A stretch of 64,000 nucleotides of DNA from an uncultured Bdellovibrio sp. (GCA_963932905.1 CAWVRN010000004.1:144384-208383); one strand, 5' to 3'; positions 3,511 through 30,302 are shown, counted from the stretch's first letter. A program made the numbers and translations. The notes: generated by a model from the letters alone, not told the origin.

Positions 3511-4980
3511 ATGAAAAAAGAAACGCACAAGTATTTACTGCAAAATGCAGACAATCCTGAAATATTAAAAAAATTCACACGTCGTGAATTGATGGGTGCA
3601 GGATTTGCGGGATTGGCCACACGCGTGTGGATGCCCTCAACCGCCAGCTTGATCGCAAATTTATTGGGCACAAGTTCGACGGCGAAAGCTGACACTGTAA
3701 CCAACTGGATGCCTTTTATCACCATTAACCTATCTGGCGGCGCTGGTATACATGGCAATATAGTTCCACTAAATTCCGCGGGTGCGATGCTACCGACCTA
3801 CGACTTTTTAGGTTTAGGAAAAAAACCAACTATTGAAAATTACTTGGGTTTAAATTTCATGGATAAATCACGTATGCTTGAAGGATTAAAATCCGTTCTC
3901 AGCGCCGATGCGGCGTCTAGAGCCAAGGGATCAATCCTTTGCACATCGACATCTCCTGACACAAATGGGATTCCTCCTTTGCGGTCACAGTTTGATCTTT
4001 CAGCTGTGCTAGAGAAAACCGGCAAAAAAGGCGAATTCTTTTCTGATTTACAAATGAATGCGACATCGACGTCGATCCGTTCATTCCACGATCAGGAACC
4101 GACCAGCCGTTTAAATGTGGCTAGCGTTGCACAACTGCAGGACTCTCTGTCGTTAACTGCGGTGTATGCGTCCACTGTTAGCGGAACAGATACGACACCG
4201 CGTTTTACGCAAAATCAGAAACGAAATGTCGCCTCTGTATTATCGAAAATGACAGAGCTACAGTTGAATTCACGTAACTCAGATAAACTGAATCCAGAGA
4301 AAAATAAAATTATTGATGCTAGTAAAAAATTGGAAGATCTAGTCGGCGGAACTGTCAGTGGTAAAACCTTGGTGGATCCCTACCAATCAGCGATGACTAA
4401 AAATGTTTACAAGTTAACCGATCCCGCAAGAGACTCCGCCAGCCTTCAAACTACGGCAGCAATCATGTACTGCAATTTGATGGGCTATTCGTCGCACACC
4501 TATTTAGCCCTACCCGGATACGACTATCATGATCCTTCCACTCGTACACAATCCAATCAACGTGACTTTGAAGCAGGACAACAAATCGGACGTATTGTCG
4601 AGCTTGCACATCAATTACAAAAATCTGTTTTTATCTTTGTAAACACGGACGGATCCTGTGTTTCAATTAGATCGGATGACATCACTTCACAATGGAGCGG
4701 TGATACTACAAATTCATTGCAATTAATTATCGCTTACACTCCAGAAGGCGTTGATTTTTCAACGACTAGTAATTTGAAATCACAAATTGGCCACTACACG
4801 AACGATCAAGCGACAGATAAAAATACATTGGTCGGCGATCGTACCGACTACGTAGCCGCGGCGGTAACAGCTAACTATTTAAACTTGCATGGTCAAATCA
4901 GTCGACTAACTGAAGTCGTACCATCAACAATAACTCAGGAACGAACCGGCGAAGTCGTTCGCCTAAAGGCCAAAGCTTAA
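3511..4980 (+). CDS. Tat-exported DUF1501/DUF1552-like protein
   Basis: TRRELMG twin-arginine signal with AKA cleavage site; motifs FITINLSGGA, GYDYHD, NTDGS. Confidence 0.6.
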   Translation: MKKETHKYLLQNADNPEILKKFTRRELMGAGFAGLATRVWMPSTASLIANLLGTSSTAKADTVTNWMPFITINLSGGAGIHGNIVPLNSAGAMLPTYDFLGLGKKPTIENYLGLNFMDKSRMLEGLKSVLSADAASRAKGSILCTSTSPDTNGIPPLRSQFDLSAVLEKTGKKGEFFSDLQMNATSTSIRSFHDQEPTSRLNVASVAQLQDSLSLTAVYASTVSGTDTTPRFTQNQKRNVASVLSKMTELQLNSRNSDKLNPEKNKIIDASKKLEDLVGGTVSGKTLVDPYQSAMTKNVYKLTDPARDSASLQTTAAIMYCNLMGYSSHTYLALPGYDYHDPSTRTQSNQRDFEAGQQIGRIVELAHQLQKSVFIFVNTDGSCVSIRSDDITSQWSGDTTNSLQLIIAYTPEGVDFSTTSNLKSQIGHYTNDQATDKNTLVGDRTDYVAAAVTANYLNLHGQISRLTEVVPSTITQERTGEVVRLKAKA

Positions 4981-4981
4981 T

Positions 4982-6727
4982 ATGAAAACGAATCGCAGAC
5001 TCCTTTTTTCACTTTTCGCACTCGCAATATTGGCCATTGCATTTCAAAATTGTGCTGGTTCCGACTTTTTTGTAGTCGCAATGGACGAACTTGAAAGCAG
5101 CTCAGAAGCGCCAACTGCCAAGCTAAATACGTGCGAAAGTATTCTTTATAACGAGTTCTTGAAACCAAATGGTTACTATGCATTTCTTAGCCAGAAATGT
5201 GTTACTTGTCATAATGGTTTAGGACAAGGCCCAGGTTTCGCTAGCCTCAATACATCAACAGCTTGGGAAAAATTTTCGGATAAAGAAATTGCCGGAAACC
5301 ACCGTGTCAGTGACCGCGCCGTTAGCGATCACCAACCCGGCGTTACAGGCACACAAAATCAATCAATTATCGGTCCTTTAAAAGAACAATTCGCAGCAGC
5401 CCAAATTAAATACGAAGCGTGTGAAGAAGATCAAGGTGGCGGTGACACGAAAGCCGTATTGAAACCAATTAAAGTCACTCCGTTATCACTCGCCTTTCTT
5501 AAAGATACCGGTGAAGATCTCACGGACGCTGAAAAGCAATTCTTAAGAAACGAAGTTCTGAAGTATTATGTTGAAGAAAAACCAGGAACTGGTATTTACA
5601 TCGAAAATCTTCAGACGCTAGAAAACCTGAATCCTTATGAGCGTCCTATTTTTAATACCGCTACCAATCGTTGGACAAAACAGGCTCTTAAGAAAGTATC
5701 GACTTTTGAATTAACAGATGAAGAAGCGGCCAATATTCGCGTAGAGACATACAAACTGGTGGACGCCGCAGGTAACCCCATCATGGATAAAGGTGTCCAA
5801 AAGGAAAAAACTTATTTCCTAAATCCATTTCAACGCATCCAACGCAATCAAACAACTAACGCCATTATCGTGGATCCAAAAACGTTTGAACCACTTGTCG
5901 AAGAACTAAAACGCGGAGGGCAGTACACATTTGCACTTCGCAATGGGACGTATACACCCGATGTATCCGGCGATGAACCTTACGTGACATTTAAAATTCA
6001 GATTTTCCGTTCACAGCGACCAATAACAAAAACGGAACAACGTTTAAGTATAAAAAAACGCGTTGACGCCAACACAGTTCAAACTCTAACGGTAGCGCGC
6101 CCTACTGCTTATGCTCAATCACTAGACCCCTATGTTGTTATTAAACGCCCCGTTTTCAATATCGATAGCGGCATGCCCGCCTCACTGTACCCAAAATATG
6201 CGTATCAAATCCAAGACCTGGGTATGTATGTTAACGGTGTACTGCAAAACGATCGTACCATTTTCCGAATCATCGATAGTGTCGTTTGTGAAAAAACCGC
6301 TATCAACGTCATGGTAAATTCCAATTCAGAAATTTTGCCACTTGATTTCAGCAAATCAAACTCGATACAATTCGAGTTTAAAAATGCGGCGATGGTAGAC
6401 CGTGCGAATTTTACTTCTAAGCAAATTTCATGCTCTGAAGATGAGCAAATGAATGAAAATGTAGTTTTACCTGACAACGTGACTTACACCGACTTGATGG
6501 GCGCTACGGATGTAAACGTCTTCAAAAAAAGCTGCGTCAGTTGCCATAGTTCAGCAAACTTAGCCGGAGGATTTGATATTTCGACTTATGATCGCGCGAA
6601 AGAACGCAACAGCAAAATCGTCGAGCGAATGAACAATGCCAACTCACCGATGCCACCAAACGGAATTTTGAGTCCAACATCGCGTAAATTAGTTCAAAAG
6701 TGGATAAGTCTGGGAAGCCCGCAATAG
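4982..6727 (+). CDS. di-heme c-type cytochrome lipoprotein
   Basis: FQNC lipobox-like signal; CVTCH and CVSCH motifs; C-terminal PMPP...KWI..G pattern typical of cytochrome c domains. Confidence 0.7.
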   Translation: MKTNRRLLFSLFALAILAIAFQNCAGSDFFVVAMDELESSSEAPTAKLNTCESILYNEFLKPNGYYAFLSQKCVTCHNGLGQGPGFASLNTSTAWEKFSDKEIAGNHRVSDRAVSDHQPGVTGTQNQSIIGPLKEQFAAAQIKYEACEEDQGGGDTKAVLKPIKVTPLSLAFLKDTGEDLTDAEKQFLRNEVLKYYVEEKPGTGIYIENLQTLENLNPYERPIFNTATNRWTKQALKKVSTFELTDEEAANIRVETYKLVDAAGNPIMDKGVQKEKTYFLNPFQRIQRNQTTNAIIVDPKTFEPLVEELKRGGQYTFALRNGTYTPDVSGDEPYVTFKIQIFRSQRPITKTEQRLSIKKRVDANTVQTLTVARPTAYAQSLDPYVVIKRPVFNIDSGMPASLYPKYAYQIQDLGMYVNGVLQNDRTIFRIIDSVVCEKTAINVMVNSNSEILPLDFSKSNSIQFEFKNAAMVDRANFTSKQISCSEDEQMNENVVLPDNVTYTDLMGATDVNVFKKSCVSCHSSANLAGGFDISTYDRAKERNSKIVERMNNANSPMPPNGILSPTSRKLVQKWISLGSPQ

Positions 6728-20321: not shown

Positions 20322-20386
20322 TGACCTGCTCCCTTTCATGAGCCAGACTATCTTATTTTCTGGCTCGAGTTAAGGGGAGTAGGTCA
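20322..20386. mobile_element. 65-bp mini element made of two abutted IS3-family-like ends
   Basis: TGACCTGCTCCCTTTCATGAGCCAGA ... TCTGGCTCGAGTTAAGGGGAGTAGGTCA; TG...CA termini with imperfect inverted arms. Confidence 0.55.
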
Positions 20387-20393
20387 AGGCCAG

Positions 20394-20816
20394 ATCATAG
20401 ATTTGAACTGGCAGCAGGTAAATTTGGAGTCTAAAGAAGTTTCATTTCTAAGAACTTTAAAATCACAATCTCGAAAAATGAGAATATCTGACGAGTTAGT
20501 TCTAATATTAGAAAAGAGAAAAAAGACCAATGGATACGTCTTCATGACTTATTACAAAGAACCATTTACTAAGCCTAAACTAGCTCGATTGGTAAACGAA
20601 TTCAAAATCAAAACGCGTTGTGAAATCCAGTGGACTCTCATGGATCTAAGGCATTCCTTTGCTGTTAATTATCTTCGATCTGGAGGAGATATTAGAAAAC
20701 TTCAGTACTCACTAGGGCATGAAAATATATACGATACCAAGCGACTTTATTCTGAAGCGATCATCAAAGCTGATTCGAAAACAGTCGAATTAAGCCCATT
20801 TGAAATCGGATCTTAA
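20394..20816 (+). pseudogene. tyrosine recombinase, C-terminal fragment (copy 1)
   Basis: IIDLNWQQVNL...MDLRHSFAVNYLRSGGDIRKLQYSLGHENIYDTKRLY; no N-terminal binding domain; begins right after the mini-IS. Confidence 0.85.
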
Positions 20817-20920
20817 ATCGTACAATTTGCAGTGCAGGGATCACGGGCGGCCCAGGATCCGGGCCCCCATTTTTCGGGTTTAGTCGAGAATTTTGGTAAT
20901 CTTTTGGCCAAAGTTTGGCC
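20817..20920. repeat. conserved GC-rich non-coding block after the recombinase (copy 1)
   Basis: Near-identical to 24288-24391; contains GGATCACGGGCGGCCCAGGATCC and TTTTGGCCAAAGTTTGGCC. Confidence 0.85.
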
Positions 20921-20964: not shown

Positions 20965-21192
20965 TCAGCGCACTATTGGCCCTGAGGGAGAGCTTCCATT
21001 TCGCAAAAAAAAGTAAATCGAAATTGCCCCAAGAAGAACACTTGAAATTCCAAAAGCAATCCATTCCCTATTCCAAATGGACCAAAGTAAAATAATACTT
21101 ACAATAAATGAAAGGAATGAAAGAATATTTTCAATCCTTTTACGCTTTGGATTCTTGCTTTCTTCAATCGGTTTCTCCGGAACAATCTTCAT
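20965..21192 (-). CDS. putative immunity protein (2 TM) for Rhs tip A
   Basis: Small hydrophobic ORF 10 bp downstream of the Rhs-CT, with a GGTGG RBS. Confidence 0.65.
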   Translation of the reverse strand: MKIVPEKPIEESKNPKRKRIENILSFLSFIVSIILLWSIWNREWIAFGISSVLLGAISIYFFLRNGSSPSGPIVR

Positions 21193-21201
21193 ATCACCAC
21201 C

Positions 21202-21578
21202 TTATGGAATAGGAGCCATGTACAAACGTTTACATACGTAACCCATAGCTCTATAAGCAGCTACCTCAGCTGCCTTAGATACCGCAATATTAATTACAGC
21301 AATCTCCGCTTCTGTTTTTGCATCTTTTCCACACATGCCAGGTTCAAGCCCACGCGACTCCCGTTGACTTCGATCAGACTCCGCATATGCTTCTGCAGCA
21401 GCACCTCTACCTACACCTGGTGTAGCTATAGAACATAAAAAACCTGATACAGGACCGGTGCCTTCAGCATCTATAAAGTTTATCGGATCCTGCAACACAT
21501 ATCCATACAAATTCGTATCCCCACCCTCAAACAAAATCGGATCTTTACTCGTCCATCTCCCCGTCTCAGGATCATAAT
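21202..21578 (-). pseudogene. orphan Rhs core end + C-terminal toxin tip (cassette A)
   Basis: [39 protein letters not shown] followed by a unique tip ending CKRLYMAPIP. ORF-track codons upstream of 21578 are not Rhs-like. Confidence 0.85.
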
Positions 21579-21961
21579 GTCTGTATGAAGTATTGAAGCA
21601 AAATGCTTCACTTGAATGTTTCATAGTTATTTCAATATCTTCTCACTTAGATTCTGTTTTTTACAACCGCCAAATTTTTTGCATTTTGGGAATATTTTTT
21701 TAGTTTTGGCCAAAATCTGGCCAACGAAATTCGAATCCCGGTGCGCAATACTCTCAAATCTGCAGTTTTACCTATATCAATTTAGTGATCTTGGTATTCT
21801 ATGGTGATTGATACTTAAAATAATTTCTCTGTATAAAGTGGGGGCTATGTCTGACTATTAACTTTCCAAAGTGCCATTTTTAGGCTATATTGGTGCGCTA
21901 TAAGCCAATATATTGCTTTACGTTGGGTATAGCAGTTGCAATTTAAGTTTTTGGAGATTTT

Positions 21962-22171
21962 ATGACTTCACAACATGAAGAAAAAAATAAGCGTCTTGAA
22001 ATCCTTAAGCAAGAAGAGAAAATTATTTCTGAGCTGAATGACACTTCAGAACTAAGTGAACGACTTAATAAGATTAAAGAAAGTCATAACCGCAAATATT
22101 CAATTAATGACGAAGTTCAAGAAGAACCTGTTAGAAAAATTGCTATACCAGAAAACGATAATTCAATTTAA
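21962..22171 (+). CDS. small charged protein, candidate antitoxin/partner of the PIN gene
   Basis: GGAG RBS, 69 aa, ends 8 bp upstream of the PIN-domain gene. Confidence 0.5.
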   Translation: MTSQHEEKNKRLEILKQEEKIISELNDTSELSERLNKIKESHNRKYSINDEVQEEPVRKIAIPENDNSI

Positions 22172-22179
22172 GATTAACC

Positions 22180-22905
22180 ATGATATACAAAGCTCAAGAT
22201 GTACTACTCGATAGTGCTAAACGCATTCTCGTAGACTCAAATATCATCGTTGCCTATTTCGATGAAAAGCATAAGTTTCATAAAGAAGTTTTTGATAGAC
22301 TAAATCCAGTATATTTAAACGGAGCAAGTTTTTTCTATGTTCAACCATGCCTTTTAGAATTTAAGGAGTATTGGCGTAGAAAAAAACTAACAGAATGTAT
22401 TGAAGAAATGATCGGAAAAGAGTTCTATTTTTTCAGAGAGTTTCGAAAGTTATATAATAAATTTCGTACCGACAATCAAAATCAAGGTTATGAGTACTTA
22501 AGTGATCGACAAATCAAAAATCTTCGTGGCACTCTTGAAAACATACACAACAATAAAGGATTAAACTTCTGGTTCGATTTAAGCAATGTTGCATTAACAG
22601 GAACTTTATCCAACTTAGAAAATCGATTATCTAAATCGAAATTTATCTACGCCAAATTTGATGACAATAATCTTTTTCCAATATCAAACAAACCAAACTG
22701 GCCTAAGTGGATTGACGCTGATTTGGCCCAGGAAAAATTTTGTTTAGCAGCTAACGATGCGGCGATCTTGAATATGACAAACAATGCATTTAACATTGAC
22801 TCATTTATTTCAAATGACGGAGACATGCTGTTTGCGGTTAGCAACGGTGCGCTCAAACATCAAATTAATACATATACTTTTTTAGATAACTCAAACTTTA
22901 TCTGA
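22180..22905 (+). CDS. PIN-domain (VapC-like) ribonuclease with an internal insertion
   Basis: ILVDSNIIVAY..D...H, conserved E (LLEF), NDAAIL and FISNDGD: the acidic PIN signature. Confidence 0.75.
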   Translation: MIYKAQDVLLDSAKRILVDSNIIVAYFDEKHKFHKEVFDRLNPVYLNGASFFYVQPCLLEFKEYWRRKKLTECIEEMIGKEFYFFREFRKLYNKFRTDNQNQGYEYLSDRQIKNLRGTLENIHNNKGLNFWFDLSNVALTGTLSNLENRLSKSKFIYAKFDDNNLFPISNKPNWPKWIDADLAQEKFCLAANDAAILNMTNNAFNIDSFISNDGDMLFAVSNGALKHQINTYTFLDNSNFI

Positions 22906-23135
22906 ATTCTAAATAGGTATTACTATATAATTTTACTTACCTCTATTGCAAAGCTCCTGAGCATTTGGCTCATCTTTCCGGCACATGTTATCAACAGAAT
23001 CCCAGCAACCCCCTCCGTCTAAGCAAGCGTCTTTTTTCTCACAGCTAAGAGATAAAAAAATTATTGATAGCAACAAAATTTTAACTAAATTTTTGGAATG
23101 TTAAATTTCTTTCCGTTTGAATGTTTGTTAGGGAA

Positions 23136-23693
23136 TTATGAGTATGTTTTTATCCAATCATCAATTTGGTTTTGCAAATCCTTGTCTTGCCACTCAAAAT
23201 AAAAATTGCCGTCAAGGTCTTTCTTGTATTGCAAATTAGTCTTTGGCGGCACATTGCTAGTAGTGCCTTCTTTCAACTCAAGGCCAACTTTTTTAGAAAA
23301 CAAATCTGCATATGCTAAATGATCATTTGGGTAAAACCTTGTACTCGCCATTTGTTGATTGAAAAATGTGATTGTCAGAGTTCCCTTAATTCCTAAATGC
23401 TCATAGTTCTTAATTTTCCAACTCAAGATGCTAAATGCTGGCCTAGTATCTCCGTTTTCTAGTTTACTATCTTCGATGACTTCAACACTATAGTTTGCAT
23501 TTTTTAGAATGTCTTGCGCCTGAGCTGGGTTCATCAAACTAGAGAATGGATCAACTAATTCGGTCTTGATCGTAACGTTGTTTTCTGTGTAGCTAGGTCT
23601 ATAAAAATAAAATAGTGACGCCACAACAAATATAAGAAATCCCACAACAATTATTATTTTTTTATTTTTCAAAGCGATCTCCTCAGTACCCAT
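23136..23693 (-). CDS. membrane-anchored periplasmic protein, putative orphan immunity protein
   Basis: N-terminal TM; its start overlaps the end of a toxin-like remnant (ATGGGTACTGA). Confidence 0.6.
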   Translation of the reverse strand: MGTEEIALKNKKIIIVVGFLIFVVASLFYFYRPSYTENNVTIKTELVDPFSSLMNPAQAQDILKNANYSVEVIEDSKLENGDTRPAFSILSWKIKNYEHLGIKGTLTITFFNQQMASTRFYPNDHLAYADLFSKKVGLELKEGTTSNVPPKTNLQYKKDLDGNFYFEWQDKDLQNQIDDWIKTYS

Positions 23694-23810
23694 TTGAGCC
23701 CGTTACCGGCGTGGTAGTCAATATGCCATTAGTAAGTGAACTCATGCACTTCTGCGAGCAAGTTCCTGCCCCTGCAGAGTTACCTCCGTGGTAGCTTCCG
23801 GTAGCATTAT
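23683..23810 (-). pseudogene. 3' remnant of a probable toxin tip
   Basis: Open frame NATGSYHGGNSAGAGTCSQKCMSSLTNGILTTTPVTGSNGY* overlapping the next gene start; cut off by recombinase copy 2. Confidence 0.45.
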
Positions 23811-24287
23811 TATTTCTATCCAATTCTAAAAATATTTTCAGAATCTGGAGCAAAGCTCTGCGAAATCATCGATTTAAATTGGCAACAAGTAGATCTGGAA
23901 AATAAAGAAATAACATTTCCTAGAACCATCAAATCGCAATCTCGGAAAATAAAGATTTCAGACGAACTAACTTCAATTCTAGAAAAGAAGAAAGAAGTAA
24001 CTGGATATGTTTTTAAAACTTATTATAACGAGGCGTTCAGCAAACCTAAACTGGCCCGACTGGTTAACGAATTTAAAATCAAAACAAAATGTGAAATTAA
24101 ATGGACGTTGATGGATCTAAGACATTCTTTTGCTGTTAACTTTCTTCGCTCGGGTGGAGACATTAGAAAGCTTCAGTACTTAATGGGGCACGACAACATT
24201 TACGATACAAGGCGCCTATACGCAGGTGCTGTCGCAAAAACAGACTCGCAAGTGGACACTTTAAATCCGTTTGAAATCGGGTCCTGA
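23811..24287 (+). pseudogene. tyrosine recombinase, C-terminal fragment (copy 2)
   Basis: Manual translation YFYPILKIFSESGAKLCEIIDLNWQQVDL...MDLRHSFAVNFLRSGGDIRKLQYLMGHDNIYDTRRLY...NPFEIGS*. No start codon; in-frame stop at 23802; colinear with copy 1. Confidence 0.85.
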
Positions 24288-24391
24288 ATCGTACAATTCG
24301 CAGCGCCAGGATCACGGGCGGCCCAGTATCCGGGCCCCCATTTTTTGGGTTTAATAAAGAATTTTGGTAAACTTTTGGCCAAAGTTTGGCC
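24288..24391. repeat. conserved GC-rich non-coding block after the recombinase (copy 2)
   Basis: Near-identical to 20817-20920. Confidence 0.85.
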
Positions 24392-24458
24392 TCGGATTTT
24401 GAAGTAATAAAGCTATTTTTAAAAATAGCTTTATTACGTGCGCTCACTATGGCTCAGT

Positions 24459-24764
24459 CTAGTGGATCACAGAGTTTGGCGGTTGCTTGATATCCGGAAT
24501 TTTATATATTCCAAAACCAATTAACAATACTCCAACAAAACAAAGTACATAGCCCAATATTTTTTCATAATGAATTAGTTCATCGGCACCACCACCAATT
24601 TTTTGAACTATATCCAGACTTGCAAGTATTGGAAAAAATAGAAGTATGCCTCCGCAAAGACCAACAACAATTCCTAAAAATATTAATTTTAGTCCACCCT
24701 GACTTTTATTTTTAAAGTTTTCTATATTATCAATTTGCGGTTTTGGAGGCACAATCTGATTCAT
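24459..24764 (-). CDS. putative immunity protein (2 TM)
   Basis: ATG 24764 behind an AGGAGA RBS; follows a decayed toxin tip. Confidence 0.6.
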   Translation of the reverse strand: MNQIVPPKPQIDNIENFKNKSQGGLKLIFLGIVVGLCGGILLFFPILASLDIVQKIGGGADELIHYEKILGYVLCFVGVLLIGFGIYKIPDIKQPPNSVIH

Positions 24765-24772
24765 AAATTCTC

Positions 24773-25002
24773 CTATGGTGTGAAAGGGCTTAACATCAAA
24801 GCAAGACATGCCTTATAACCAAATTTATCAATGGCATATCTAGTTGCTCCAGTTGCGGCAGACTACGCCGCTAGCTTACCAACCTTTCTCATAAATCCTG
24901 CTTTAACCGTATCATCGATATGATCGATGATACGAATCAACACTTACACGAAATCTATCGAGGGTTGCCTATCGACTAAGAGTGCCGGTCTCGTGCTCCA
25001 TA
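24773..25002 (-). pseudogene. decayed Rhs tip (cassette A')
   Basis: Starts YGARD then degenerates; 3' frame ...KLAA*SAATGATRYAIDKFGYKACLALMLSPFTP* has an internal stop. Confidence 0.55.
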
Positions 25003-25035
25003 GCTCCTAACGGCCGTTTCTGGCCGTCAAAAATT
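25003..25035. repeat. collapsed cassette linker
   Basis: GCTCCTAACGGCCGTTTCTGGCCGTCAAAAATT: the first ACGGCCG box is fused directly to the hairpin. Confidence 0.7.
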
Positions 25036-25098
25036 AGGGACTACAAAGCTTTAGTTAACAACTATCACAACTGGTTTTATGCTTGCTTCCTTCTTAAA

Positions 25099-25224
25099 CT
25101 ACTTTTCTTCTGCAAGAATTTGCTGATCAGAATTTTTATAAAAACAAGATTTAACCACTACTGTAATGGCAATAGTGGTAACAAAAATAAGTGCATATAT
25201 GATAATTTTTTTCTTACTACTCAA
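25099..25224 (-). CDS. 41-aa single-TM putative immunity peptide for tip B
   Basis: Manual ORF with TTG start and GGGAG RBS: MSSKKKIIIYALIFVTTIAITVVVKSCFYKNSDQQILAEEK. Confidence 0.5.
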   Translation of the reverse strand: MSSKKKIIIYALIFVTTIAITVVVKSCFYKNSDQQILAEEK

Positions 25225-25276
25225 GCACACTCCCTTTCCAAAAATATTCTTACAACCTATATTATAACTAATTTAT

Positions 25277-25639
25277 CTATGCGGGACATTTATTAATTGG
25301 CTTTGGACGTCCAGGCCGAGGAAATCGATCTGGTTGTCTTGTTTTAGGAAGCCTCTCAATTTGTGTTGGGGGACCATTGATAAATTCATCCCATCTAAGC
25401 CTCCACTTTAAGGTGTAAGTCATTGGATCTTTAAAATAATCAACTAATTCCTCACCAATTAGAAGCCCGGTCCCAACAACTATAGGAACTATAATAAATG
25501 GATTCAGCCCACTCGGATCTGTAAAGTTCACAGGATCGTTCCAAGTATAACCGTAGAGATTAGTATCAGCACCTTCAAACAAAATGGGATCCTAGCTCGT
25601 CCATCTCCCCGTCTCAGGATCATAATTCCTGGCACCAAA
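25277..25639 (-). pseudogene. orphan Rhs core end + toxin tip (cassette B)
   Basis: [43 protein letters not shown] then a unique tip; TAG at the Lys codon. Confidence 0.85.
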
Positions 25640-25713
25640 GCCTCTAACGGCCGTATCACAACACAATATTTTCAAACTCAAAAAAGAAAACGGCCGATCT
25701 CGGCCGCTAAAAA
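25640..25713. repeat. cassette linker (CGGCCG x3, hairpin)
   Basis: GCCTCTAACGGCCGTATC...AAAACGGCCG-ATCT-CGGCCGCTAAAAA. Confidence 0.85.
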
Positions 25714-25752
25714 TAATTTTGATACTAATTGCTTTAACTATTTTAAAAGAAA

Positions 25753-26175
25753 TTATTGGAGTCTATTTAAAACAAAAACAACTACCAAAGAAACAACAAA
25801 AACAAATCCAATAGCTATAGCAACCAAAACAAAGGGATGTACTCCTAATCGATCTATCTTATATCCCTGATTGTTATAATTTCTAATTAAACCTACTAAA
25901 CGCTCCCGGGCACTTTTTCCTCCAGCATTCCAGATATCATCACTTTGAGCCTGCACTATAAATTTTGTTTTATTTGGATATTTTACCCATGAGACCCGTA
26001 CCTTAACACGCTGAAAACCATACTTTACTACGCCCTCAAAAAAGTGTTCCTGCTCATTACTAATTTTTCCTAATTTCTGAAGGGCGGCCTTAGCTACTTG
26101 CAAACTTGTTGCAAAGTCTTGTTGAGTCTCCACTTCTCCATTTCCTAAATCTACAAAATCCATATTCATCCCCAT
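25753..26175 (-). CDS. putative immunity protein (C-terminal TM) for tip C
   Basis: Starts 6 bp after the toxin stop. Confidence 0.65.
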   Translation of the reverse strand: MGMNMDFVDLGNGEVETQQDFATSLQVAKAALQKLGKISNEQEHFFEGVVKYGFQRVKVRVSWVKYPNKTKFIVQAQSDDIWNAGGKSARERLVGLIRNYNNQGYKIDRLGVHPFVLVAIAIGFVFVVSLVVVFVLNRLQ

Positions 26176-26180
26176 TCAAA

Positions 26181-26543
26181 TTATTTGTCTAATATTTGAT
26201 CGATGTTGCTTTTACCATCATCAATGATAATAGGTAAAAGTACCTGACCCGCACCTATAGCAGCACCAAGCGCGGCACCCGCTATCATCCCTGGGCCAGA
26301 GCCAGCCGGCAAACACATACCAACCGTCGCTCCAGTAACTCCGCCAATTACAGCCCCTTTAAACGCTCCTTTTCCTGCATCTAATATATCTCTAGAGGTT
26401 ATTTTCCTCAACCCATCTGGATCAATAAAATTCACCGGGTCCTGTAGCACATACCCATACAAATTCGTATCCCCACCAGCAAACCCAATCGGATCCTTCG
26501 AAGTCCACCGTCCAACCTCAGGATCATAATCCCTGGCTCCGAA
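26181..26543 (-). pseudogene. orphan Rhs core end + glycine-zipper tip (cassette C)
   Basis: [44 protein letters not shown] followed by GAxxG-rich helices. Confidence 0.85.
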
Positions 26544-26659
26544 GCCCCTAACGGCCGTATCTCCTTAAGGAAAATCGAACTGGAAAATTAAAACGGCCGC
26601 TTTCGCGGCCGTTTTAATTATTTATGCATCAACTATCTTAACTGACTCCGATAGACTAG
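26544..26659. repeat. cassette linker (CGGCCG x3, hairpin)
   Basis: GCCCCTAACGGCCGTATC...AATTAAAACGGCCGC-TTTC-GCGGCCGTTTTAATT...ATCAACTATCTT...CTAG. Confidence 0.9.
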
Positions 26660-26672
26660 AATTTAAATTGCA

Positions 26673-26963
26673 TTAGAATATTTCCTTTTCTAAGAATAAA
26701 AATAAGAGACTAACAGCAGTCGCACTAATCATTATTAGATAGCCTAAATAATACAATTTTTTCATTTCTGGAGTCATTTCTCTTGCTCCAAAACTTACCC
26801 AATTGCCTTTTTTGAGAATCGAAATTTTAGCCCTGAAAAACAGTACAAAACCAACAATGAAAATCAGTGCTAACTGCACTCTAAAATTTAGTGAAAGCAA
26901 GGCGCCACAAATCAAAGGTCCATAAAAAATTGCTGCGTTAAATTTAGCTGACTGTGGGCCCAT
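26673..26963 (-). CDS. putative membrane immunity protein for tip D
   Basis: AGGAGA RBS, three hydrophobic segments, starts 12 bp after the toxin stop. Confidence 0.65.
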   Translation of the reverse strand: MGPQSAKFNAAIFYGPLICGALLSLNFRVQLALIFIVGFVLFFRAKISILKKGNWVSFGAREMTPEMKKLYYLGYLIMISATAVSLLFLFLEKEIF

Positions 26964-26974
26964 ATTTTCTCCTT

Positions 26975-27379
26975 TTATATTCCTGGAACTGGGGGAACTG
27001 TATTACCCGGATTAACCATGCCACATCGGTATCCAGCACCTGCGACGCCTTTCCAACCACCGTAGCTACTGATAAGCGAATAATTTTTATCGTACTCATC
27101 ATATAAGGGATCATTTAATTTATCTGCCTCGCATTTTCCCTTAGTAAGCTCATTGTACTTTATTTTAGTGTATAAGACAGCATTTCTGGCCGTCAATGCC
27201 GCAACCAAGGCATAATTATTAATTGACCCAATAACCATACAAAGCTTTCCATCTGGGTCGATATTATTCACCGGATCCTGCAAAACATATCCATACAAAT
27301 TCGTATCTCCACCCTCAAACAGTATGGGATCTTTCGAAGTCCACCGCCCCGTCTCAGGATCATAAGCCCTGACTCCAAA
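26975..27379 (-). pseudogene. orphan Rhs core end + toxin tip (cassette D)
   Basis: [44 protein letters not shown] then a unique tip. Confidence 0.85.
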
Positions 27380-27493
27380 GCCACTAACGGCCGTATCTCA
27401 TTCAGGAAAATCGAACCGCAAAATTAAAACGGCCGCGTTTGCGGCCGGAGAACTACTTAGGTATCAACTATCTTGATTGGCTCCGTGGCCTAG
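27380..27493. repeat. cassette linker (CGGCCG x3, hairpin)
   Basis: GCCACTAACGGCCGTATC...AAAACGGCCGC-GTTT-GCGGCCG...ATCAACTATCTT...CTAG; alignable with 26544-26659 over its whole length. Confidence 0.9.
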
Positions 27494-27666
27494 TTTTGTT
27501 TCTCAATAGCTGGTGCTATTTTAATCTTATCTCTTAGCTCTCTTTCTGTTTTATCTGTCCTATTAAAATAAAAAGCTTTAAGTAATGCGAAAAAGAAAAC
27601 CAGCAGGCAGAATATCCATATCCACAATCGTTCATTTTTTTTAAAACTATTTAAAAGCCTTCTCAA
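27490..27666 (-). CDS. 58-aa single-TM putative immunity peptide for tip E
   Basis: Manual ORF; TTG overlaps the toxin [46 protein letters not shown]...EKQN. Confidence 0.55.
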
Positions 27667-28043
27667 GAATTCTCTCCCCCATGATAGCTGTTAGGATACC
27701 CTTTTGGCGGTCTAAGTCTATGCCATTTAGGCATCGGAGTAGATTTTATTTTTTTAGGAACAGGACAGGTTCCAAAGTTTCTCGAATCGTTCTCTATTTC
27801 GTTAAACTCACCTTCGCCAAAATTATCTCCCAAAATTGTTCCAATGTAGTCTCCTAAAAAATATATTCCAGGTAAGATAATAGGTGCCAATATCGGCCCA
27901 ACGGCTGCTTTCCCCTCAGGATCAATTAAATTCACCGGATCCTGCAACACATATCCATACAAATTAGTATCACCGCCATTAAATAAAATAGGATCTTTCG
28001 AAGTCCATCGACCAGTCTCAGGATCATAATCACGGCCGCCGAA
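27663..28043 (-). pseudogene. orphan Rhs core end + toxin tip (cassette E)
   Basis: [44 protein letters not shown] then a hydrophobic tip. Confidence 0.85.
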
Positions 28044-28118
28044 GCCCCTAAGGGCCGTATCCCGATACAACAATTCCAAAACTCACAAAATAAAAACGGC
28101 CGTTTTCGGCCGTTAAAA
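28044..28118. repeat. cassette linker (hairpin; first box variant AGGGCCG)
   Basis: GCCCCTAAGGGCCGTATC...AAAAACGGCCG-TTTT-CGGCCGTTAAAA. Confidence 0.85.
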
Positions 28119-28177
28119 ATAATATTCGAAATCAACAATTACTTTTATATTCTTGGGCCACGAAAACTCACTAAAAA

Positions 28178-28651
28178 CTAATTCTTAAAATTTATATTTT
28201 CAAAAACTGAAGTTAGCTGATGCTTTTCCAGTTCGCCCTTGTCTTTTTCATCGGCAACAAATTGCATTTTCTTCGCTTCTTCGAATAATGGTTGAATCTT
28301 CTCCAACTGATTTGGCGAATTGTTTCGCTGATTCTCTCTGGCGACCTCTATACCTTCGTAAAACAGCCACACTTCAATAGTAGGAATTTCTTTTTGAGGT
28401 ACAGTTTTGTAAATTTGCTTCGCCTTTTCTATATCCTGCTTGACGCAAAGGCCTCTGGCGTAGAAAGACGCAAACAAATATGCTGCCTCATTGGAAAGAT
28501 AGACAGCACGTTTAGTATTTTCGAAACTTTCGCAATACTCACCGTCTTCAAACTCATGCCTGCCTTTTTCTTCAAAATGAGAATACGTAAGTCTATAAAC
28601 TACGAATAAGCTAAAAAGCGAAATTACAGTGCCTATTATAATTTTTATCAT
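28178..28651 (-). CDS. Sel1-repeat-like membrane-anchored immunity protein
   Basis: N-terminal TM; EAAYLFASFYARGLCVKQDIEKAKQIY resembles a Sel1 repeat; TAATG overlap with the Rhs stop. Confidence 0.7.
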   Translation of the reverse strand: MIKIIIGTVISLFSLFVVYRLTYSHFEEKGRHEFEDGEYCESFENTKRAVYLSNEAAYLFASFYARGLCVKQDIEKAKQIYKTVPQKEIPTIEVWLFYEGIEVARENQRNNSPNQLEKIQPLFEEAKKMQFVADEKDKGELEKHQLTSVFENINFKN

Positions 28652-30300
28652 TATAGTCCTACCTCAATTGTATTATTTCCGTCCTCTGCACCCAACAGAT
28701 TATTTATATTACTTAAATCTGTTTCTGATGAGTTTGGATCTCCTGTTATGCAACCATTGGAGCCACCTTTCCTCAAGTGTAATAAAAAGTCTCCACCGTT
28801 TTGTCCTAGTTTAAATCCAATTCTAGAAAATAATCCAGGATCTAAAAACCAATCTCCAGTCTTTAAGCCTGGTAGCTTCCTAATATCATAAGTGCCTATT
28901 GGGATTGGACCTAAAGGAGAACCAGTTGCAGATGGTTTATTTTTAAAGGTTCCGGCGCCACTAAACATCTGCGACATGTAAGAAGTAGCACCATCATTAC
29001 TAGTACAATTTAGTTTACCACTAGTAATTGAGTAGCTACATTTCGCCAACCCCATCGGATCAATATAACTCATCGGGTCCCCGCCGACATACGCATACAA
29101 ATTCGTATCCCCACCCTCAAACAAAATCGGATCTTTACTCGTCCATCTCCCCGTCTCAGGATCATAATCCCTCGCCCCAAACCGAACCAATTTCGTGCTC
29201 CAATCGGCTAGCCCCCCGGCAAAGCCAATTGCCAGCTCGCCGCTTCGATTGTCTTGTAAAACTTTTCCAAATTCATCGTATTCAATTCTTTGAATTATGG
29301 ATCCGTCACTGCCCTTTACTACCATCACCGGGCTGCCCAATAAATCTGTAACTATTTTGTAATTTACGCCGGCTTCTATATAGTAATCAGGCGCATGGGA
29401 TTTCGTTGCGTAAACGTATCTTCGTTTTAAACTTCCGTCGGCATTTAGTTCGGCAACTAAACGACTCTGTTCCCATAAATAGCGTCTAACAACCACCCCG
29501 TTTATCTTGCGACTGACTCTTCTGTTTAGTCCATCAATATCGTAGTTGATTAACGTTCCATTTTCTAACTTGACTTGAGTTAAATTCCCGAGCGTATCAT
29601 AGACGTAACTGGCCGTTTGATTGAGCACCGTATTTGTTTTGCTTTGTAGCTCTCCGTCCGCGTTATAGGCAAAGGTGCTAGATCCAAAGCTAGACAGACG
29701 ATCTTGCGTGTCATATGCCGCTGCCGTCGTGCTGGGTGGGCTTGCGATCTGTGCAGAGGTTCTATTCCCGTTATCATCATAGGTATATTTTCTGATCCAC
29801 ACCGATGATAAATATTGGATTTCCTTTAGGCGGCCGCGATTATCATAAATATATTTATAGGCTTTAGTTGGCCAACCGCTGACTGTGTAGGATCGAGTCA
29901 AAATACGTCCCAGATTATCGCGCGTCAGGGTTTCGCTATACAGATTGGCGCTTCCGCTTACAACTGTCCGCCCAGTGATTTCTGCAAAATTATTTGTCGT
30001 AATGTTTTCATCAATCAAACCAAGCGTGGTCTTGTTCAATATTCCATTCGGAGCAGATGAATAAAATAAGTTTAAACTTCCGGCTTGGGTCAGTTGTTCA
30101 TCATCGTTATAGACATAAGGCAGAGTTTCAATTGCCCCCGCGCCCACCTTTAATTCAAAGCTAGATAGTTTTCCTTCTGATGCAAAATACTTTTTACTAT
30201 AAGCCGTGACACTGCCGTGCTCAAACGACTCTTTACTGACATAGTCTCCTAAATACTCATACCTTGTTACAATACCACTTGGTCCGGTGACACTAGATAT
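28651..30300 (-). pseudogene. rhs: 5'-truncated Rhs/YD-repeat protein with a Tlde1/DUF2778-like toxin tip
   Basis: YD repeats, core motif ...DPMSYIDPMG, tip with GPIPIGTY and FLLHLRKGGSNGCI. The frame stays open upstream of the GTG at 30147 up to 30300, where an in-frame TGA and a repeat cut it. Confidence 0.88.
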
Positions 30301-30302
30301 TC

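Follow-up and report, generated by a model that had tools for sequence, protein, structure and literature searches.

Silent Rhs toxin/immunity cassettes behind a conserved linker in a Bdellovibrio array appear to be shuffled by homologous recombination

The 64,000-nucleotide (nt) stretch of uncultured Bdellovibrio DNA analyzed here (the window; G000:C4:144384-208383, where G000 is the genome of origin, and the stretch to which all window coordinates refer) carries on its minus strand an array of Rhs toxin cassettes in which a short non-coding linker repeatedly joins the Rhs core at the same codon. The array consists, in minus-strand order, of a long rhs gene, a small open reading frame (ORF), the orphan modules E, D, C and B, the stub A', ~3.4 kb of other DNA and orphan A. 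These modules appear to be silent Rhs toxin/immunity cassettes, and ordinary homologous recombination, not an integron-like site, appears to shuffle them. We propose that the locus is a Rhs C-terminal displacement array whose linker junction arose once and was then carried along by homologous recombination, the linker not being the crossover site, and we assign this reading a probability of roughly 65%.

The linker junction is a real, non-chance and well conserved feature. The junction pattern ACGGCCSTTAGNRGCTWYGG matches the window five times (24998-25017, 25635-25654, 26539-26558, 27375-27394 and 28039-28058) versus 0.00 matches expected from 100 shuffles, and five of the six occurrences of ACGGCC[GC]TTAG in the 4.55-Mb genome (40.7% GC) are located at this locus. 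The intact linkers follow a single plan: CGGCCG, a loop of four or six bases, a second CGGCCG, a T-run, a spacer of 32-35 nt, the box GATACGGCCGTTAG, four variable nucleotides and the F codon of the core motif FGARDYDP (in A', the Y codon TAT). The perfect palindrome ACGGCCGT occurs three times in this linker type (type I). At the junctions of B to E, the in-frame translation reads D-T-A-(V/L)-(R/S)-G and then F-G-x-R-x-Y-D-P. The gap between the second hairpin arm and the box measures 35 (E), 32 (D), 32 (C) and 33 nt (B), and the second and third CGGCCG lie 45 (E), 42 (D), 42 (C) and 43 (B) nt apart from start to start.

Most of the anatomy reported in an earlier model-made annotation of the same DNA (the first-pass annotation) is reproduced by these data. 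Its five junction strings were all recovered on the minus strand by direct reading and by regular expression, entry into the core at the F codon holds for B to E with TAT (Y) in its place in A', and the long rhs reads TTG GTT CGG/TTT GGG as stated there. The four intact linkers return the same distances of 42, 42, 43 and 45 bp between the hairpin and the third box. The two spacer subtypes, C/D versus B/E, are also real on alignment: C and D share a 32-nt form, E has a 35-nt form that recurs in other genomes, and B has a diverged 33-nt relative of the E form. The claim that the boxes and their spacing are kept extends even across genomes. In A', the second hairpin arm is the box itself and the spacer is absent, as would be expected after a deletion between the direct repeats ACGGCCGTT.

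Where do the cassettes exchange? As judged by sequence comparison, the mapped end-points of exchange are inside the core repeats and not at GTTAG, contrary to the first-pass suggestion of a crossover at the linker. Loci L027 and L037 (L-numbers denote loci from our genome and metagenome scans; L036 and L037 are metagenome contigs) are 97.96% identical over 1,128 nt, from F+13 of one core through the tip, the immunity gene and the linker to F+94 of the next core, beyond which the next tips differ. This 1,128-nt module is an orphan in L037 but sits on a rhs gene of 1237 amino acids (aa) in L027. In the window, orphan A shares an exact run of 73 nt with the long rhs and then matches E, and orphan B shares an exact run of 31 nt with the long rhs. 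Contigs from sequencing runs were also compared with the window (X1 and X2, from two studies; X3 and X4, from one study). The X1 and X2 contigs join the upstream flank of A through the shared tract to the main tip, and the X3 and X4 contigs place a C-type core and tip behind a full-length-type core (..DTKLVRFGAR and ..DTGLVRFGVR, translated from the loose ends at 26531 and 26533).

These end-points, shared tracts and contig joints, taken together, fit the published displacement model, in which a circle pops out by core-to-core recombination and is then inserted by homologous recombination (Jackson et al. 2009, PMC2935791). Recombination between main and orphan copies has been demonstrated in Salmonella (Koskiniemi et al. 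2014, PMC3967940). The displacement model would reproduce a uniform unit once one exists. In our proposal, a 5'-truncated rhs would be followed by orphan modules that each comprise a partial core, a toxin tip and an immunity gene. The first part of the linker, a GC-rich hairpin and T-run predicted to be a terminator, would form the 3' end of the preceding module, and the second part would be a leader of ~50 nt that contains the spacer and the box. We infer that a single event in an ancestor belonging to this genus joined the leader to the core, either at the F codon of FGARDYDP or immediately before it, and that later cassettes all inherited the junction. Cassettes would be gained, lost and swapped by recombination, presumably RecA-dependent, in the ~135-nt core repeats that flank each unit. 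Because the linker would ride inside the exchanged unit and never be the crossover point, the uniform junction would mark descent from one illegitimate join and not a site-specific recombination site.

The window locus contains seven copies of the Rhs core. The modules downstream of the long rhs, five orphans and one stub, consist of a partial core, an unrelated tip and a small downstream ORF, and the tips have no Pfam family in common. The roles of the putative immunity genes are assigned by position. The features from the long rhs to the stub are as follows.

28651..30302, minus: long rhs, an Rhs fragment truncated at its 5' end that comprises YD repeats, the core and the main tip at the C terminus (Pfam, NCBIfam, ORF)
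28178..28651, minus: putative immunity gene of the main tip, 157 aa, located after the tip (ORF; no Pfam match)
28044..28177, minus: linker E, with a hairpin at 28114-28095, T-run, 35-nt spacer, box GATACGGCCCTTAG at 28061-28048 and 4 variable nt (sequence, fold, terminator scan)
27663..28043, minus: orphan E, partial core from the F codon (28043) and C-terminal tip (tblastn to core; ORF 27663..28079)
27490..27666, minus: putative immunity gene E, 58 aa (ORF)
27380..27489, minus: linker D, with a hairpin at 27447-27430, 32-nt spacer and box at 27397-27384 (sequence, fold, terminator scan)
26975..27379, minus: orphan D, core from the F codon at 27379 and tip (ORF, tblastn to core)
26673..26963, minus: putative immunity gene D, 96 aa (ORF)
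26544..26672, minus: linker C, with a hairpin at 26611-26594 (15 pairs with its A/T flanks), 32-nt spacer and box at 26561-26548 (sequence, fold)
26181..26543, minus: orphan C, core from the F codon at 26543 and tip (ORF, tblastn to core)
25753..26175, minus: putative immunity gene C, 140 aa (ORF)
25640..25752, minus: linker B, with a hairpin at 25708-25689, 33-nt spacer and box at 25657-25644 (sequence, fold, terminator scan)
25277..25639, minus: orphan B, core from the F codon at 25639, with a TAG stop in frame at 25594-25592 (core match containing one TAG)
25099..25224, minus: small membrane-type ORF, 41 aa, candidate immunity gene for B (read by eye)
24988..25026, minus: linker A' and stub, CGGCCA-GAAA-CGGCCG, the second arm running into GTTAGGAGC, followed by TAT GGA GCA CGA GAC (sequence)

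The long rhs is a truncated gene, because its frame closes near 30300. An ORF of 498 aa spans 28651..30147 (first listed start, GTG at 30147), and the frame is open from about 30299, giving ~550 open codons below the upstream stop near 30300; full-length relatives have 1197-1377 aa. The window's long rhs does not encode a full-length Rhs protein with an N-terminal delivery region. It matches TEN_YD-shell (9e-29) and RHS_repeat (3.7e-9) in Pfam and TIGR03696 in NCBIfam (74.6 bits; cut-off, 32.5), its core ends in ..YIDPMGL and thus carries the DPxG motif of the RHS core, and the Tlde1 match to its tip is weak and below the cut-off. Contigs of two runs part from the window exactly at 30302, which suggests that other strains keep a longer rhs gene upstream of this position.

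How widely is the junction distributed? We collected 13 distinct type I linkers, all of which can be aligned from end to end and are joined at the same codon: E, D, C, B and A' of the window, one on G008:C55, three on G006 (C145, C19 and C152; G006 and G008 are two congeneric genomes), three on L036 and one further on L037. A scan with the hairpin arm and box over 185,579 species, one genome each, found two stretches, both titled Bdellovibrio or Bdellovibrionaceae. The same pattern returned nine metagenome loci, of which four are overlapping views of one scaffold whose four linkers and their spacing are those of the window, two duplicate the genome matches, one is a chance match (L029, rejected as a GC-rich, unrelated sequence) and two are new (L036 and L037). 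In a BLAST search with linker E over 182 family genomes, significant matches were obtained in only three, all of one genus (G000, G008 and G006, the last at two places), and the junction is present in three of the 384 genomes examined from the order. When the 45-aa core was used as a protein query against the 10 genomes of the genus, the core clade was likewise confined to these three. Reading upstream of every orphan in the genus added one further, degraded linker, on G006:C152, and seven of nine near-matches to the junction pattern inspected in relatives proved to be unrelated sequence. In G008 and G006, the linker comes after the immunity gene of full-length rhs genes (1237 and 1197 aa). 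Four other Rhs-type genes elsewhere in the window's genome (contigs C3 at ~41 kb, C44, C1 and C11) are ~26% identical to the window's gene and lack this linker. Loci L028 and L036 have downstream ABC-transporter genes in common (76% identity over 3.2 kb) and different cassette sets; because the flank is shared and the cassettes are not, orthologous arrays seem to turn over quickly. Several orphans have decayed: the frame of B is interrupted by a TAG, and L036b and G006:C19 contain stops or a frameshift (L036 5353-5470; L068 8380-8520), yet their linkers are still largely intact.

The hairpin of the linker is most likely an intrinsic (rho-independent) terminator, given its anatomy, a GC-rich stem-loop and a T/U run located 3' of a stop codon. 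A terminator scan flagged three of the four intact window hairpins as terminator-like, and the fourth folds to 15 pairs; terminator-like sites in the whole region number 9 versus 7.5 expected. The first-pass annotation had envisaged a folded site that includes the third box and had proposed folding both strands and looking for covariation. The sole structure that recurs, as RNA or DNA and on either strand, is a small hairpin of 6-8 bp (15 bp in C). The hairpin is also the only consensus structure in an RNAalifold analysis of 11 linkers, with eight pairs, no compensatory change and an unpaired third box. No covariation was detected in this 11-linker analysis, and none is possible because the stems are invariant. 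Pairing of the first arm with the third box was considered and rejected: it appears in one minimum-free-energy fold (B) and in none of five other RNA folds, and the box changes in E and L036z are, by eye, uncompensated. The idea of a folded site that includes the box is therefore not supported, as the hairpin alone is predicted consistently.

The box and the spacer are more conserved than their surroundings. Across 11 linkers, changes from the column consensus occur in 0 of 132 cells of the hairpin arms, 6 of 154 cells of the third box, 17 of 44 cells of the four nucleotides between the box and the F codon and 43 of 110 cells of the 10 nt upstream of the hairpin. The contrast between the box and its flank is inflated because four of the 11 linkers came from a pattern that demanded the second arm and the box. 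The linkers found without the box pattern (L036z, L037b, G006:C19 and G006:C152) all have box changes. A recount on window E, D, C and B and three independently found linkers gives 6/98 in the box versus 9/28 in the 4-nt stretch. In pairs of linkers with intact cores, identity is 0.77-0.89 in the spacer and 0.93-1.00 in the box, and 0.58-0.73 in the adjoining core (0.31-0.64 at its third codon positions). The linker looks relatively young, because the orphan cores have been overwritten by older, diverse alleles. By these counts, ascertainment bias and the younger age of the linker soften the contrast but do not remove it, and some nucleotide-level constraint on the box and spacer is likely. 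At a guess, they may play a role in cis, either as a downstream homology arm for swaps of tip and immunity gene or as a leader or protein-binding site of the next cassette. The first-pass annotation had named, as the picture opposed to its own, common descent of all cassettes with tip replacement, a linker that acts only as a terminator and an unselected third box. Descent and replacement agree with our observations, but the third box looks constrained.

Several observations weigh against the displacement reading. The rate contrast between the box and the adjacent four nucleotides is unexplained by a terminator plus neutral descent, and so is the greater likeness of the linker than of the adjoining core. 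The longest exact matches between window linkers, measured by eye, are 13-17 nt, a short length for exchange of the RecA type inside the linker. We give the contig joints little weight, since they come from short, low-depth assemblies, and an assembly switch could account for the joint between A and the main tip, which runs across a 75-nt shared repeat. Truncated tyrosine recombinase genes also lie within the array.

The best surviving alternative, which we nevertheless consider unlikely, is that the spacer and box form a cis-regulatory leader (promoter, operator or RNA leader) of the next cassette, with the immunity gene as a unit of its own insulated by the upstream terminator. The ~50 nt conserved at the nucleotide level directly follow the terminator-like hairpin, and the third codon positions of the box are conserved as much as its other positions, which argues for a constraint at the DNA or RNA level and not at the coding level. 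The threefold presence of a perfect palindrome also fits this reading, and orphan immunity genes are useful only if they are expressed, as established for orphan modules (PMC3967940 and PMC12247911). However, no linker contains a sigma-70-like site, promoter-like sites in the region number 31 versus 27.6 expected, and no structure is conserved beyond the hairpin. No Rfam family reaches its gathering score; six matches at E <=1 all fall below and are treated as chance, including the best, BSnc120, which has 34.9 bits versus 114 needed and lies on the opposite strand of linker C. Furthermore, the C/D spacer is unlike the B/E spacer along most of its length, and the box is degraded in linkers found without requiring it, for example on G006:C152.

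Could the box instead be a coding remnant or a translated leader? GAT ACG of the box shares its reading frame with the D-T codons found in some full-length alleles, at an equal T-to-F spacing, and the box might derive from core coding sequence. This idea is unsupported: a degenerate search for D-T-A-V-R-x-F-G-A-R-D-Y-D in the 384 genomes of the order returned only the six known orphan junctions and no full-length gene. Translation of orphans from a start codon within the linker was also rejected, since a TTG is in frame in E, B, L027 and L036a but not in C, D, L028, L036b and L037b.

An improbable alternative is that the linker is a terminator and nothing else, with the spacer and box as a neutral relic that looks conserved because the junction is young and the core has been overwritten by older, diverse rhs alleles. 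The taxonomic range is very narrow, the orphan core has clearly been overwritten by the main core, part of the sample was selected for an intact box, and the four pattern-independent linkers all have box changes. Against this alternative, the 4 nt beside the box and the 10 nt preceding the hairpin vary ~8 times more than the box, although they are part of the same young unit, and the recount given above still preserves the contrast.

A tyrosine recombinase might act at the junctions, and the DNA beyond the stub is relevant to this point. Its features are as follows.

21577..24987, no strand assigned: non-core DNA between stub A' and orphan A (sequence)
24459-24809, minus: ORF in the non-core DNA
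24359-24391: repeat D4c
24320-24336: hairpin in the non-core DNA
23805-24287, plus: truncated Xer-like recombinase
23136-23693, minus: ORF in the non-core DNA
21962-22171 and 22180-22905, plus: ORFs in the non-core DNA
21577-21722: type III leader, including the hairpin GGCCAGATTTTGGCC
21202..21576, minus: orphan A, core from the Y codon (F+15), preceded by ACAGACAT; the first 73 nt equal the long rhs and the rest is E-like (core comparison)
20965..21192, minus: putative immunity gene A, 75 aa (ORF)
20325..20920, plus: second truncated Xer-like recombinase (open frame 20325-20816), with a hairpin at 20849-20865 and repeat D4a at 20888-20920

The two truncated Xer-like tyrosine recombinase copies are 74.6% identical at the amino acid level; they retain only C-terminal portions, with 160 and 163 open codons. 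Both lie at the distal end of the array and converge with it, and each is followed by a hairpin, GGCCC.G...C.GGGCC, and a repeat containing GGCCAAAGTTTGGCC. An intact homologue of 343 aa is encoded on G006:C130, downstream of another rhs array (L075 8128-11480); its neighbours are another tyrosine recombinase (339 aa) and an ORF of 413 aa that matches the Mom family, a cluster reminiscent of multi-recombinase mobile elements. A homologue fragment is present on G006:C150. Neither C130 nor C150 carries a type I linker, and among the genus contigs with a type I linker, only the window carries a homologue. No integrase domain was found in the subset of ORFs tested from L036, L037 and L028. The recombinase is thus not tied to the type I linker, because homologues and linkers sit on different contigs apart from the window. 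Two further observations concern the DNA around these genes. The 3' ends of the recombinase copies (20803-20843 and 24274-24314) are 71% like the Rhs core GATCC..GATCCGATTT over 41 nt (20803-20843 versus 21534-21574), a likeness that may be fortuitous or may reflect a remnant of the core. Close to stub A' in the non-core DNA that follows it, 24909-24933 form a perfect 11-bp inverted repeat, GTATCATCGAT-CAT-ATCGATGATAC.

Two other leader types have fixed junctions of their own. The type III leader consists of a GGCCA..TGGCC hairpin, ~125 nt and then ACAGACAT, and enters the core at the Y codon of YDP (F+15); it occurs at three loci in two genomes (window 21577-21722; L076, on G006:C150, 1455-1691; L077, on G006:C22, near 5647-5786). 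The type II leader, ..AACGGCCGC..GTTCTAGTCAT, also enters the core at this Y codon, likewise at three loci (L037 near 3975-4150 on the minus strand; L075, on G006:C130, near 6230-6393; L069, on G006:C56). Both types are joined exactly at GAY/TAYGAYCC, with the junction string ..CAT/TATGATCC. The type II leader may derive from the type I linker, because it keeps an ACGGCCG box 23 nt before TATGAT. Core homology in stub A' (24988-25002) stops after Y-G-A-R-D, and orphan A (21576) starts at the next codon with Y-D-P. Because A' ends one codon before A starts, both may be remnants of a single orphan that was split by insertion of the intervening 3.4 kb at the core position used by leaders II and III. 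The recombinase may be tied to the type II/III junctions instead of the type I linker. It is a long shot that the type I linker, with its three ACGGCCGT copies at kept spacing, and the type II/III leaders would all be attachment sites with the Xer-like recombinase pair as the enzyme, alongside homologous recombination. If true, this would constitute an integron-like acquisition system for Rhs toxin/immunity cassettes at fixed codons.

A rival reading is that the linker is an attC-like recombination site at which a recombinase recognizes the three palindromes and inserts cassettes before the F codon. The junction is fixed, the palindromic boxes are invariant and their spacing is kept, A' resembles a precise deletion between two boxes, and Xer-like fragments lie in the array, with the intact homologue beside the rhs array on G006:C130. 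An X4 contig joins 25661 to 28078 in register inside the linker spacer, but one side of this joint is just 43 letters long, and 12 letters agree with neither linker. attC sites have a long imperfect stem with R''/L''/L'/R' boxes, and the linker has no such extended stem. No integron integrase above the cut-off was found in the window's genome, where TIGR02249 scores 59.8 bits at best versus 265 and the 11 matches are all generic tyrosine recombinases. The first-pass annotation had likened the GTTAG core to the integron GTTRRRY crossover, a comparison that is not supported: none of the five heptamers (GTTAGGG, GTTAGTG, GTTAGAG, GTTAGGA and CTTAGGG) fits, and the hairpin loops differ between linkers, with six different sequences among nine four-base loops, which argues against strand exchange there. 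Since the exchange end-points also map to cores, and the recombinase homologue is present in the genus only in the window and on the linker-free contigs G006:C130 and C150 and is absent from G008 and from G006:C19, C145 and C152, we regard an attC-like site as very improbable.

How does the array compare with known systems? Orphan Rhs tips are usually described with ragged core stubs of variable length, and orphan rhs-CT/rhsI modules were reportedly described by Poole and colleagues in 2011. Rhs displacement arrays (PMC2935791, PMC3967940) likewise contain a core-bearing rhs followed by modules of partial core, tip and immunity gene, with homologous recombination between main and orphan cores and with tips common to genomes at different positions. 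Several features set the present array apart from those in the parts of these papers drawn on here: a single conserved non-coding linker precedes every type I orphan and enters the core at a single codon, each of two further leader types has a fixed junction of its own, the main gene is itself 5'-truncated, and the genome is Bdellovibrio-like. The present array is thus best read as a uniform-unit variant of Rhs C-terminal displacement.

Integron arrays, built on attC and IntI, are alike in their co-oriented promoterless cassettes, their recurring inverted-repeat element and newer cassettes that apparently lie nearer the expressed end. Unlike integrons, the array has no IntI, no long imperfect stem of the attC type, no GTTRRRY match and exchange end-points in coding homology. 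The rAID (recombinase-associated acquired interbacterial defence) loci of Bacteroidales combine co-oriented orphan immunity or toxin-fragment genes with conserved intergenic motifs and a nearby tyrosine recombinase (PMC12247911). Our array likewise consists of co-oriented cassettes with tyrosine recombinase genes nearby, and it has conserved intergenic linkers that may be comparable to the rAID motifs. However, the recombinases here are truncated, distal and convergent and are missing from other linker loci, Rhs core fragments are kept, and the host belongs to another phylum. No intact tyrosine recombinase lies upstream of at least two co-oriented short genes in the window, as would be expected of rAID. 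An analogy with silent cassettes (Neisseria mafB or pil loci) is drawn in the discussion section of PMC2935791. The Neisseria loci likewise have variable cassettes with conserved flanks that allow recombination into an expressed copy; unlike them, the window locus gives no evidence of programmed high-frequency switching.

To our knowledge, Rhs arrays in this lineage of predatory bacteria have received little attention. Because the repeat unit and its conserved non-coding linker are uniform throughout the clade, cassette boundaries are easily recognized, and the array would be a clean natural system in which to study the addition, insulation and reactivation of toxin/immunity cassettes. If the box is not functional, the array would be a textbook case of displacement by homologous recombination; if the box is functional, it would represent a new cis element of polymorphic-toxin loci.

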